IMG/VR virus record: IMGVR_UViG_3300032335_000499
Reading direction: 5' to 3' (one strand)
DNA: 64,000 nucleotides
DNA from: a virus
Taxonomy: Duplodnaviria; Heunggongvirae; Uroviricota; Caudoviricetes
Under the pieces are notes generated by a model. The model had not been told where the DNA came from. It worked only from the letters and a program-made list of their open reading frames with translations, and ran no database searches. Of this stretch, positions 10,648 to 21,709 are shown one piece after another. Every line of letters begins with the position of its first letter. Positions within the stretch are counted from its first letter, which is position 1. A program made the translations under genes and the position numbers.

Positions 10648-13600
10648 TTATGCCATAGAATGTTTTAATATCTTGTGGTTGGTATCTTGACTATCTTCTA
10701 GTACACCAATCACATTATCAAACTTTTTAGCCAAATCTAATATCATTTCCCGACTTAAGAAAGTAGTTTCATCTCTAGCAGGGCGGTCACCGTCTTTAGT
10801 TGCAGATTTACGTAATGCAGAAAAAGTCATATTAGAGACTTCACTTGATGATTGAGCTAATTTGTTAAGTACTGAGTTTGGCGTGGATGGAATTACCATT
10901 TCAGTTCCGTGCATTTCGATTGGGTACCCGGATTTAGGTCCGGTGAAAACGCCACCTTTACGAGCCTTAAGCACTTCTTCTTTACCTACTTTAAAGCCTT
11001 CTACCTTTTCCATTGCATTCAACATCGATTGTCGCTGAGAAGGATTCAGTGATGCTAGTGGTGTGCTAGCTGGGACGCCGACTGCCTTAGCAACGGTGTT
11101 TACATACATTTTAGTATCGTTTTCACTCTCAGGAGCGTAACGTGCGATAGCGCGGGAAATGTCTAGATTTTTGTATCCCGAGCCCTCAAACAGCAAGGAT
11201 TCTTTTGCTTTTCTACCATCTGCATAGGTAGGGAATACTGCAAATCTTCCATCCGTTCCAATTGCTCCATGCTTTTCTGCAAAACCGCCCTTTGACCAAA
11301 CTATATTTCCTGGATTGTTGTTTCTCCAGTTTCTAGAACCTATTCTTTTTACTATCTTACCCGACGAATCTTGTATAGTAGTGAAGCCTTTACCAGCTTC
11401 GACAACTTTACTAAACCCTGTAATCCCCAATGCTGAAGCTATAGCTGTACCGGCGGCGCCTACTATATCGGCACCAGCACTGATTGCAGTATCTAATAGG
11501 CTGGGTCCCGTGGATGACAGAATTGCTATACCTTTTGCAAAGTTAAAAAATGCAGTTGAGTTTTTCAGAGCATTTTCACCGAACTTCATTTCAGTGAAAC
11601 GCTTAAAACTTTCCATTGGTCCCTCACGCTGGAATAACTTATACAGGGCAGCGCCGGCTATAGTACTGACTGCATCTAGTAATCCTGGACCTCCTTTATA
11701 AGAGGACATTGCTTCTGAAAATAGTACGAATGATTTAGCATTAATTTCCGTTTTCTTTTTGTTAATGTCCAAATGAGAAAAGTATACAGCTTGTTCTAAT
11801 GGCGGCTTAACACCAAAAAACTTTGCAGTAGCATCAGCTAACACAGTTCCAATTGCGCCAACATCACTACCTAATCCTTCATATGATGCCATGGCTTCGG
11901 CAAAATATTTAAATGCAAGCGCATTATTCTTTGTTTGTTTTGCGTCAATTGGTAACTCAGAGAATTCTACTAACTGTTCTACGGGTGTTTGTGATCCAAA
12001 TAATGATCCGAATGATTCGGATATACCCTTAATTGCGTTACCGATTCCACTCAGTGCGCCTAAGCCTGCTATTGCAGCCATTGCTTTAGCAAATGATATT
12101 AGCGCCTCACTATTATCCTCAACTCGTTTAGGGTCAATGTCAAGAATTGACATAGTGAACAACATATGGGCGATGTCTTCGAACGGATCTTTTCCGCCGG
12201 TAAGTAGTTTTGCTAAGCTTCCGATTGCAGAGGCTACCGTTCCTGCACCCATTGCAAGTATACCGGCACCAAGTCCTACCATACCTAAACCTACACCTAG
12301 CAAGTTCATTGGGTCAACTTTTTTGAATGACTGTAAACCTTCACCGAATGATGGTAGAGCTTTACTAAAAATCCAAACTGCGCCGGCTATACCTGCACCG
12401 AACTCAGTAATAGCTACTGCTAATGCGCCTGCTCCCTTTATTACTCCGGGTGCTGCTGCCCCTGCATCAGATAGTGATTTTGCAATGCCTTTAATTGCAC
12501 CGCCTATACCCTTCTTTGCAGGTTCAACTGTTGCGCCTTTATCTCCGGCTAGTTTCCACATCCTAGCGTCTCTAGCTGCGCCCCTTAATGGTTTACCGTT
12601 TTTATCTAGAAGCTGGTCTTCTTGGATGCGTACTGGCGCTGCACTTGGAGTAGCTGATGGTGCAGCGCCCGGAGTAGCTGCGGCGCCGGGAATAGCTGCT
12701 GCATCACCTTTCTTAAAGAATGAAAGCAGACCTGACAAACCTTTAGCTGCCACTACTGTTGCTAATCCAGCAGCCGCTAGTGCAGCAAGTCCACCAAACG
12801 CTTTAAGCATTCCCATATTACCTAAGAACGGATTCATCGACGCAGCAAGTTCATCTACTACTAACTTAGCCTTACGCTCTGCTTCAACTAAGTCATTGCG
12901 CATTTCCTGAGCAGGGTCTGTCGCAGCTACCCCTGTTCCTGCTTGGTTGGCCTTAACCGCTGCTGCGGCGCGACCCGCCTCAGTTCGCAAATCATATTTC
13001 ATTTGCTGGTTTAGCTTAGCAATAGTTTCTTGGTCGTATCCGTATGCTTTTTGTAAATCTTCTGACATCCCGACCGTGCGTTGGTCAAGGTTGTCTAACG
13101 TCTTTTGCATTCCAATTTTAATGTCTTGAGCTAATGAACCTTTTTGTAGGGTATTATTTTTTGCTGCGGCAATTGATTTATCTAAATCAACACCATACAT
13201 CTTGAATTTAGCACTTTGAGCAGATGTGACGCCAGTCAAGAATTGCTGTTGGGCGGCAGCTTTCATCTCTGCGCTTAATGCGGATTGTTGCAATTCATTA
13301 TTAAACTGTTCGAACCCTGCTTTCTCACGGTCAATTCGGTCAAGGTCTGCTTGTGCTGCCCGTTTTTCACTGTCAGTTTTGGCTTCTCTTAGTCTCGTAT
13401 TTGCAGCTTTGCGTTCTTCCTCCCACTTGTTCTGTTGGAGTGCAACTTCCATAGAAGCCATAAGAGTTTCACGTTCTTTGGCTACTGTTGCTGTATCTTT
13501 ACCTGTTATCTCAGCTAATTCGTATAGGTTTCTAGTATAGTTTAATGCTGCTTTTTGTAAGCCACTCTGTGTTTTTAAATTGCCGGAGAATGCAGCACCG

Positions 13601-21000: not shown

Positions 21001-21709
21001 CATCCTCACTAACAGCGACCATCTCACCGAATTTTTTAATTCCCTCAGATGTAGTCCCGCCTAAAGCAACAAATCCACCACTGACAGACTTCATTGGCCC
21101 AGTTAGCTTTTCCAGTTCCATTGAAGTTAGGCCAGCGCCGTGACCCATATCCAATATCTGTTTTGCAGTGAAGGTGCCGGCCGCCCCCATTCGGGCGACT
21201 TCATCCGTCGCTTTTAGTATGTTATCGGCTTGTTGGGTTTGATACTCTAGAAGTACAGTAAAGCCTTTAACAAGATATCCAGCAGCAGTTCCTAAGATTC
21301 CAAAGTTTTTACCCAGCTCAACTGATATGTCACCGACTTTGCTAATCGCGCCATTGTATTTTGCAAAGCCTTCCTGTGTGCTTATAGCAGTTTTATATAA
21401 GTCTATGAGTGCATTCTTACCTACGTCTGCTGCCCGAATCAAGCTATCTCTAGCTTCATTCACTACTTCATTGTATTTCTTATTTGATCTCTGAAGGGCA
21501 GTAGAGCCGGCGTTGTTCTGTTTGATAGCATCAACGTTATTTTTCTGCGAGTTATTATAATCTGTTACAGAGGAGTTAGCATTAACAACCACGGTGGTGA
21601 TTTGATTCATAGAAGCTGTCATGCCGGACATGGCAGATGCATGTTGAGATAGTAGCTCAACTAGAACACGAAATTCTTCTTCTAGTTCCTGAGTAAATTC
21701 TGAGTTCAT
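18020..21709 (-). CDS. Tape-measure/hub-like protein paralogue C with C-terminal M15-type Zn peptidase domain
   Basis: Collinear with A and B; ITIGSAYR...Q...SRHLRGEAIDM...DAPHVQL (SxHxxGxAxD...H); C-terminal AKEGGVFTGPGSGYPVELHGSEIIVP; ATG at 21709. Confidence 0.75.
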   Translation of the reverse strand: MNSEFTQELEEEFRVLVELLSQHASAMSGMTASMNQITTVVVNANSSVTDYNNSQKNNVDAIKQNNAGSTALQRSNKKYNEVVNEARDSLIRAADVGKNALIDLYKTAISTQEGFAKYNGAISKVGDISVELGKNFGILGTAAGYLVKGFTVLLEYQTQQADNILKATDEVARMGAAGTFTAKQILDMGHGAGLTSMELEKLTGPMKSVSGGFVALGGTTSEGIKKFGEMVAVSEDVRREFKRLGMGDKERNQTMADFVSLMNKSGTAFSGELSSAGAVQQAALQYTRQMYVLADVSGMSVEEAKKKYEAQMSTLETALYQNKMEQDRIAAQKAYDNADTAEERAAASAKLEKIKKDKAGYTAFNNALMQAGLGPEQVAAAQRQYFTGYIDGTSAQFAQWGVELDSLITKAKSGELDSGEAAQEIKTGFQSTVNNLGQTTIALDQQTAKNMGLGVDMIRRTTQMSETDYKKQLQDAVGKVTSNQAGVGKVAGDPAQEARNDLTEAERYLRIKADSFIADLNPLLGNTGLLKGLGIAAAGATAIFATIAAFKLGSAGVGLVKKIGTRSGSTAGVKGASRTEIGLAAANPIEKADDASFATKAVNAEDTATKGIQLASEPKSSLAARFLFFITEGLAGFGAVAVPMTVGSVKLAAAIIAVGAAVAAANVTIGKVTIPYIAKGMARFEKLDGPKIQLMGQAIANLGLAFAVGSGSSLLASLDFFNGIKGGEDAIVDINKRVLKLQELEIDKDQFKNNLDALIEFSTAMFLGKVASIKLADANAASNIVKGVSSFFGVRPPLSQVVYFSHLGMNVKRTKNNAESFKLFSEAMSSYKGMGSGLDSISSSLGEALFKYFNAKPPLEQFVEFSNQTIDEKKVENDATAFTNFVNAMASYRPGPGFLDSISSLLTGGTSYFNKGGPVYKFEEFANKDFVKDKKTGEFDTGLLEQYAFDVGTEAFIGESPVAPVIDDIADAASNVVDAGKDAVNAATGFLGDLVDSAILSLKPKNVTLGPAAFFNIIDKNMLGRFFLAAKDFGKPITIGSAYRPDSYQAQIWVRGTILKEKGIYTPARPKDTTTITYKGKQYTVEGSGKGSRHLRGEAIDMSTDRSAFDPYLLKYGLHRPYKKKDAPHVQLQAKEGGVFTGPGSGYPVELHGSEIIVPMNPDSVLMKLSQLDSDNLDEQELEDILMGKQNDNRNFELYSQLISQLDQIYWMVDSTTDIDKKMLKEQLY

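Follow-up and report, generated by a model that had tools for sequence, protein, structure and literature searches.

Three tandem tape-measure-like paralogues, two with predicted cell-wall hydrolase cassettes, between the portal and gp26-like genes of a Caudoviricetes phage

Tape-measure proteins are treated as single-gene, homotrimeric rulers. What, then, does it mean for a tailed phage to keep three tape-measure-like genes side by side? The question is raised by the IMG/VR virus record IMGVR_UViG_3300032335_000499, a 64,000-nucleotide stretch of DNA from a member of the Caudoviricetes (the window, by which we mean the whole stretch), in which three paralogues, all on the minus strand, sit between the portal gene and a divergent gp26-like gene. 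Paralogue C (18020..21709; 1229 amino acids (aa) from its ATG) is the first gene of the array and adjoins the gp26-like gene, B (14423..17989; 1188 aa) is the middle gene and has no enzyme, and A (10648..14394; 1248 aa) is the copy adjoining the portal gene. The answer that we favour, and to which we give an even chance, is that A, B and C are diverged functional tape-measure paralogues that are built into the same tails. The analysis shows that the genes are paralogues in distinct orthologous groups, that they are under selection, that their cassettes fall into classes and that their lengths have changed in concert; tail-lumen location, ruler function, co-assembly and enzyme activity are what we infer.

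An old array with one architecture

The original prediction was of three tandem, intact and collinear paralogues of these lengths, and the open reading frames and an end-to-end alignment of the three proteins confirm it. Overall identity is 37-48% (A-B 48%, A-C 37%), and over the first 540 aa the proteins are 46-56% identical, far beyond chance. For C, an in-frame TTG one codon upstream (21712) would give 1230 aa; the ATG at 21709 agrees with the database record and with the starts of A and B.

Each protein is made of five parts. The first is an N-terminal domain of 521-522 residues, which ends in NPLLG and has the same length in every paralogue and lineage examined; in the segment analysis it spans aa 1-521 of A (12832..14394), and its equivalents lie at 16427-17989 in B and at about 20147-21709 in C. 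The second part, of about 250-275 residues, contains two or three hydrophobic, glycine-rich, transmembrane-like segments (aa 530-725) picked out by a Kyte-Doolittle scan, at aa 532-724 in A (12223..12801) and at the equivalent aa 530-670 in B and C; Gly-zipper matches were found in relatives. The third part is built of a tandem 61-aa unit with the consensus FFG.KPPLEQ.V.FS.L.I..KK...NA.AF..FS.AM.SY.G, of which each gene has two strong copies and degenerate flanking ones. Searches with a hidden Markov model of the unit placed the strong pair at aa 797-918 of A (11641..12006, with expectation values (E) of 1e-31 and 3e-33), at aa 774-895 of B (15305..15670) and at aa 791-912 of C in the numbering of P0003 (18977..19342). 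The fourth part is a cassette slot of 209-245 residues, directly before the common C-terminal motif, and the fifth is a C-terminal module of 77-86 residues that starts at G(S/T)E..P...S.L.KL. In the alignments the module of A (GGVFTGP..HGTE..P...S.L.KL plus a terminal helix) covers 10651..10953; B and C have their own versions, and each version is strongly conserved inside its orthologous group. The motifs on which the original prediction had relied are thus all present, and PPLEQ is indeed part of a true tandem repeat; RREFKRLGMGD.ERNQ and DPAQE.RNDL.EAER, which had also been called repeats, occur in all three proteins as single common motifs. An AlphaFold model of B is almost entirely helical, with a predicted local distance difference test score (pLDDT) of 65-85 for residues 120-525 and low confidence elsewhere.

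Relatives were searched among 5.8 billion proteins, and a tree was built with FastTree. The search returned 58 relatives, all metagenomic; megablast with the array and tblastn with B found nothing in 50,697 phage records. A profile of the N-terminal domain retrieved 1585 cluster representatives (443 at E<=1e-30), proteins of 760-1957 residues in all of which the domain stands at the N-terminus and does not vary in size. At the locus between gp26 and the portal gene the number of copies in related genomes, a check suggested with the original prediction, varies from one (L007, L016, L017, L018) through two (L006, contig 8902) to three (the window, G001, three ENA contigs, L009 and contig 13267). 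Among the single-copy relatives, the gene between gp26 and the portal lies at 1302-6995 in L017 (1897 aa, with GH19 and VanY) and at 1287-7160 in L016 (1957 aa).

In the tree, A, B and C are separate orthologous clades, and the order C-B-A is kept in lineages whose orthologues are only 63-78% identical. Orthologues in other assemblies are 74-99% (A), 75-98% (B) and 63-99% (C) identical to those of the window, and the portal-proximal copy of the two-copy genomes groups with A. The ratio of non-synonymous to synonymous substitution rates (dN/dS) is 0.11-0.25 for A, 0.07-0.12 for B and 0.12-0.19 for C; by genome compared, the three genes give 0.07-0.25 with G001 and 0.11-0.19 with L009, the latter at a saturated dS. 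All three genes are intact and under purifying selection, and B is the most conserved. Given such selection and orthologous clades that keep a fixed order, the array is old and maintained, and none of its genes is a silent cassette, as had also been argued originally. The artefact that had been named as possible, strain variants joined in a chimeric assembly, was considered and excluded: identity among the copies is no more than 37-56%, and the array is present in IMG/VR, ENA, JGI and Logan assemblies that are independent of one another.

The spacers between the array genes are 28-30 nucleotides long, and each contains the motif [CT]TAAATA[CA], which is also present upstream of C and in the spacer before the portal gene. 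Four of its ten occurrences in the window stand 23-58 nucleotides upstream of the start codons of C, B, A and the portal gene; on the minus strand these late-promoter-like motifs are CTAAATAC upstream of C (21763..21770), TTAAATAC upstream of B (18010..18017) and CTAAATAA upstream of A (14410..14417). We take the motif to resemble the T4 late promoter TATAAATA. A common nTAAATAc element, in all probability a variant of the T4 sequence that serves as late promoter in this group of phages, was also seen 20-60 nucleotides before many late-type genes (upstream of 2785, 2698, 10617, 14394, 17989, 21709, 21794, 28126 and 37916). The original prediction gave each of the three genes a late promoter of its own; a motif is indeed found upstream of each, and it is from the motif that the promoter function is read.

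The cassette slot and its enzyme classes

The slot lies before the C-terminal G(S/T)E motif, as predicted, and its contents are exchanged among relatives. It had been proposed to hold a lysozyme-like domain in A, an M15-type peptidase in C and only an Ala/Pro/Ser linker in B, and this assignment stands. In A, profile matches in PHROG and the PDB identify aa 1020-1135 (10990..11337) as a putative lysozyme-fold glycosidase of the PHA02564 or Enc34-endolysin type (PHROG endolysin family 873, E 1e-22; PHROG 7182, E 1e-9; PDB 9vvp, E 2e-12; PDB 7q47, E 9e-4, or 2.7e-4 with a profile). The match to 9vvp relates the cassette to the N-terminus of a 1295-aa chain named 'Gp29'. The cassette has the motif RNNNPGN and, at residue 1132, a Glu that is invariant in the alignment (motif EGFK); the alignments to Enc34 stop before its catalytic Glu131, and Glu1132 of A stands at the expected distance if the alignment ran on ungapped.

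In C, Pfam and alignments point to a segment of a VanY-like zinc peptidase of family M15 (18323..18643), in which SRHLRGEAID and DAPH occur. Its H-x6-D and DxxH are invariant in 13 sequences that span two cassette variants; in M15 peptidases the zinc ligands are H-x6-D and a further His, which stands with an acidic catalytic residue in ExxH or DxxH. VanY is matched by 11 family members (E<=1e-3), P0146 passes the Pfam cut-off at 29.3 bits, M15_4 is matched by the upstream copies of the two-copy genomes, and the nearest Atlas cluster to the C cassette is VanY, with a score of 0.89 that is a lead only. A profile of the C cassette had no PDB match; an AlphaFold model of this cassette, made from a 13-row alignment, was unusable (pLDDT 41.5). 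In B, sequence and model show an Ala/Pro/Ser-rich linker in the slot (about aa 941-1013; 14951..15169). No enzyme was matched by the slot of B, and the linker region is conserved in 14 of 14 B-group proteins, all of them without an enzyme. Residues 1026-1053 of B (window 14900-14990) are modelled as a beta-hairpin with two helices (pLDDT about 70) and match no family; this element could be a small binding domain.

Cassettes are often replaced, but only inside one class. In the A clade and its sisters the domains are of glycosidase type, namely two PHA02564-like sub-types, a type with no assignment beyond the JGI name muramidase, SLT, Phage_lysozyme2 and GH19, and in the C clade and the upstream copies of two-copy genomes they are M15 peptidases, in two variants together with M15_4. 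Proteins that are 93-97% identical in the N-terminal domain may hold different cassettes. In the comparison with G001 (L002), the 3' third of A (window 10648-11690) has a dS of 0.71 and a dN of 0.22, against a dS of 0.08 in the N-terminal domain, a sign that recombination has made the cassette region a mosaic. The glycosidase-peptidase split is tied to the paralogue lineage and is old. In the single-copy relative of 1897 aa, GH19 and VanY follow one another on the same chain, and both score above their Pfam cut-offs. From this chain and from the class-fixed cassettes, the clade seems to need both glycan and peptide cutting, whether the enzymes come in cis or in trans. The freely exchanged slot is also a catalogue of virion-delivered muralytic domains.

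The gp5-like spike of the window (33119-37405, plus strand; 1428 aa) gave a weak OB-domain match and no Pfam lysozyme domain. About 950 of its C-terminal residues yielded only coiled-coil-type matches (DUF1664, DUF948, ATG17-like), and the gp5-like spikes of relatives, of 1245-1380 aa, also have no lysozyme. The array as a whole suggests that wall digestion was transferred from the gp5 spike to the tape measure in giant T4-like phages. The proposal that tape-measure cassettes compensate for a lysozyme-free gp5 was rejected, the correlation being unclean: one relative, in whose single tape measure no enzyme was detected, also has a gp5-like protein without a Pfam lysozyme.

Probable tape-measure identity, length change and proposed assembly

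That A, B and C are tape-measure proteins is, in our judgement, very probable. Since the family has no homology to T4 gp29, the evidence for this is indirect, and it comes from several sides. Among PHROG families, A matches tape-measure family 2276 (E 7e-20). P0060, a single-copy orthologue found at this locus in another contig, matches the tape-measure PHROGs 794, 167 and 23574 (E 3e-16 to 9e-8), and it resembles A, B and C over 350-520 aa at its N-terminus (E 1e-29) and again at its C-terminal end. Several of 34 family members match families 2276, 167, 9570 and 794 and the 'tail associated lysin' family 1047, as do three of eight distant members for tape-measure families, and no match to a head or ejection-protein PHROG family was found among the 42 members scanned. 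Foldseek with the B model against BFVD gave 52 matches at E<=1e-3, of which the named ones are nearly all tape-measure or minor tail proteins; against the PDB it gave none at that threshold. The constant helical N-terminal domain, the hydrophobic middle segments and the tandem units also speak for a tape measure. The genes are thus tape-measure-like, as had been proposed, by the PHROG matches of the family and the BFVD matches of the B model.

The position of the array points in the same direction. In T4, gp26 is divergent from 51-27-28-29, and the window has its gp26-like gene divergent from the array. The gene order recurs in two cultured relatives, PA5oct and a 121Q-like phage, where a single gene occupies the site between gp26 and the portal (798 and 743 aa, respectively), and the 798-aa protein of PA5oct has been found in virions by mass spectrometry. 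In T4 the ratio of tail length to gp29 is about 0.17 nm per residue, and at this ratio 798 aa would predict roughly the 136-nm tail of PA5oct. That tail length is a published one (PMC3936114). No gp29 homologue was found in PA5oct and its paper names no tape measure; the gene at this site is a candidate tape measure for PA5oct/RaK2-like jumbo phages, where none is named. In the record of Atu_ph07, the tape measure named in its paper is not labelled.

The length of tape measures evolves by gain and loss of repeat units (PMC3271669), and the array does the same with its tandem 61-aa units, of which there are two or three copies according to lineage. In the window lineage (5 contigs) every paralogue has two strong units (122 residues), and in the L009 lineage (5 contigs) every paralogue has three (183 residues); outside the units, the segments keep paralogue-specific lengths in both lineages. 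In A and in B of the window, unit one is a chimera that combines units one and two of the L009 orthologue, as expected from in-register unequal crossing-over inside each gene, and in C a different unit is involved in the change. Recent gene conversion was considered as the cause of the equal unit numbers and rejected, as the last units cluster by paralogue and not by genome; unit identities across paralogues are 30-64%. With two units in the outgroups, the most economical history is one of three parallel gains. L006, a two-copy genome, has an extra length of about 290 aa in each copy in the part that follows the units (1544 and 1492 aa). It follows that matching length is under selection, as a ruler function predicts, and this requirement would be most stringent if the chains share one tube. 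Copies that change length together make the clade a natural experiment on how tail length is set; the predicted difference in tail length between two-unit and three-unit lineages is about 9 nm.

The mechanism that we propose would run as follows. The tape-measure protein would fill the lumen of the tail tube, set the length of the tail and be expelled first at infection. Its transmembrane-like segments could form a channel through the envelope, the 61-residue block would be the adjustable part and the slot would be the cargo, and the paralogue-specific C-terminal module probably docks in the baseplate hub. A would deliver a glycan-cleaving enzyme, C an M15 peptide-cleaving enzyme and B none. 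The matching lengths and the unit number that changed in step argue for building into the same tails, and this co-variation and the paralogue-specific, conserved C-termini favour co-assembly. Tape measures are trimeric in T5 and 80alpha (PMC10038345), and given these trimers and the C-termini proper to each paralogue, a 1:1:1 heterotrimer would be the simplest model, in which each virion would inject both enzyme classes. One might go further and propose an obligate heterotrimer of a glycosidase chain, a peptidase chain and a slim, enzyme-free chain, like a heterotrimeric coiled coil, a tentative step whose chances we put a little short of even. The C-termini would then set the register, and any change in tail length would need matching repeat changes in three genes.

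Several points weigh against this picture. B and C themselves match no tape-measure family, the link being transitive through the common N-terminal domain, and the B model has a low mean pLDDT (48.7) and low template-modelling scores to tape-measure models (TM-scores of 0.07-0.25). BLASTP and hhalign found no homology of the family to T4 gp29 (hhalign probability 0.4%) or to PA5oct gp335, and B, C and P0060 do not match phrog_1283, although T4 gp29 does. On the side of the enzymes, the catalytic Glu of A is one that we infer, and C itself reaches 21.7 bits against Pfam VanY, under the 25-bit cut-off. A 1:1:1 trimer is impossible in two-copy genomes, chains of equal length would be expected as well if separate homotrimers built tails of a single length, and a tube lumen of about 4 nm may be too narrow for two or three folded enzyme domains that lie level with one another along the axis. 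Contact among A, B and C is a proposal, and a complex prediction of their C-terminal modules (median score 0.29, with the mark at 0.32) counts neither for nor against it.

Three other explanations have to be set beside the favoured one. All three proteins could be tape measures that each form their own homotrimer, so that a burst would contain glycosidase-armed, peptidase-armed and unarmed virions as a bet-hedging device for different hosts or cell-wall states. In its favour are the homotrimeric state of known tape measures, the separate start region and promoter-like motif of every gene and the free swapping of cassettes among close relatives, as for host-range modules. We nevertheless think this unlikely: the enzyme class has been fixed per paralogue lineage over long times, the most constrained copy is the enzyme-free B, and the single-copy relative has both enzymes on one chain, so that both are apparently wanted in one virion. 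Moreover, three separate events kept the unit number equal, which would be a weaker requirement if the tails were built independently. A further step down in probability is the proposal that only one copy is the ruler, most likely B, and that A and C are tape-measure-derived tail lysins, present as minor virion proteins. It would be hard to explain under it why the unit number of A and C changed together with that of B if their length were unimportant, or why both retain the full tape-measure architecture, including the fixed N-terminal domain and the C-terminal module, and the two-copy genomes lack an enzyme-free copy; B does, however, have the lowest dN/dS, lysin families are matched only by A and its relatives, and Korn et al. 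annotate one of two tape-measure-like genes of Staphylococcus jumbo phages as a tail lysin.

The proteins might, lastly, not be tape measures at all, and instead be internal or head proteins that are ejected to form a trans-envelope channel, like gp14-16 of the podovirus T7. They have transmembrane-like segments, their genes are co-oriented with the portal and head genes, and the A cassette resembles the N-terminus of the 'Gp29' chain in PDB 9vvp, which from its size and domain order we guess may be a gp16-like ejection protein. Against this, the phage has a T4-type contractile tail with baseplate and hub genes, no family member matches an ejection or internal-protein family whereas several match tape-measure families, and the fold matches go to tape measures. 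There are, in addition, relatives without any other tape-measure candidate, and the changes in length by repeat units are typical of tape measures (PMC3271669). We consider this the least probable of the three, and quite improbable.

Should the favoured explanation hold, the ruler gene would have been doubled or tripled in a large clade (the 1585 cluster representatives) and its copies long kept, with each copy lineage tied to one class of wall-cutting enzyme and with lengths that shift together by whole units. An obligate heterotrimer, if true, would be the first asymmetric tape measure, and would show compensatory co-evolution of length occurring naturally in a molecular ruler.

Neighbouring genes and known systems

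The array is flanked downstream by a T4-type, gp20-like portal gene (8833..10617, minus strand; Pfam Portal_T4, E 1e-103), and the gp26-like baseplate hub gene divergent from C lies at 21794..22636 on the plus strand (Pfam T4_baseplate, E 2e-12). The window also encodes a gp23-type capsid protein, a gp21-type protease, gp25-, gp53- and gp6-like baseplate proteins, gp46/47-like nucleases and a gp55-like late sigma factor, in addition to the portal, the gp26-like protein and the gp5-like spike. Capsid proteins 64-67% identical to that of the window occur in Vibrio phage 2.275.O, Pseudomonas phage PA5oct and 121Q-like coliphages, and the source is an uncultured jumbo myovirus, distantly T4-like. 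An HNH/homing-endonuclease gene (3562-4335, minus strand; PHROG 655, E 2e-46) lies directly downstream of the major capsid gene, and PA5oct likewise has a homing endonuclease adjoining its capsid gene. Right after the gp6-like baseplate wedge gene there is an open reading frame of 6618 aa (41296-61152, plus strand), which is very large for a phage. In Vibrio phage 2.275.O (L004), a cultured relative, the interval between gp26 and the portal (10568-14592) holds two genes on the strand of gp26, one of them homologous to the 1042-aa baseplate-region protein of the window (phrog_11190); the tape measure of that phage must lie away from the interval.

Muralytic tape measures are well known, as in mycobacteriophage TM4 and in phiKZ gp181. 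What is new here is the third, conserved, enzyme-free paralogue, the lineage-fixed enzyme classes despite cassette turnover, the cis and trans alternatives and the concerted unit changes. The catalytic domain of the Hafnia phage Enc34 endolysin (PHA02564 family, PDB 7Q47) is a lysozyme-fold glycosidase (PMC8943055) that has an RNNNPGN-type N-terminal part in common with the A cassette; the Enc34 enzyme is, however, a free endolysin with a C-terminal membrane anchor, whereas the A cassette is an insert in a predicted virion protein of 1248 aa. T4 gp29, the hub subunit and tail length determinator (phrog_1283), adjoins a divergent gp26 as the array does and is helical with a hydrophobic middle segment. 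Unlike the array proteins, with which it has no detectable homology, it is a single-copy protein of 590 aa without an enzyme, the T4 lysozyme being on gp5. PA5oct gp335 (798 aa) and the 743-aa gene of the 121Q-like phage Turkey5 occupy the same position between gp26 and the portal, with identical synteny over about 20 kb, but they are single-copy, have no enzyme cassette and show no sequence similarity to the array in BLASTP and hhalign.

Staphylococcus jumbo phages have two tape-measure-like genes annotated as 'tape measure protein plus tail lysin' (Korn et al.). Their products, too, are helical paralogues encoded in tandem and contain transmembrane segments, and one or both have peptidoglycan hydrolase domains; they belong, however, to an unrelated, AR9/phiKZ-like lineage and number two copies of about 2000 aa, whereas here there are three, including a conserved enzyme-free one. 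The account of these phages by Korn et al. contains no analysis of co-evolving length or of lineage-fixed enzyme class. The tape measure pb2 of T5 is a helical trimer in the tail lumen, with membrane-inserting segments, a muralytic domain near its C-terminus and a C-terminus that docks in the hub (PMC10038345, Linares et al. 2023), and on receptor binding it is expelled and perforates the wall (PMC10038345). Like the proteins proposed for the array, it is a long helical protein with membrane segments and a muralytic domain near the C-terminus. T5, however, is a siphovirus that has one gene, one homotrimer and one enzyme, whereas the phage described here has three paralogues, two enzyme classes with an empty slot, and a contractile tail.

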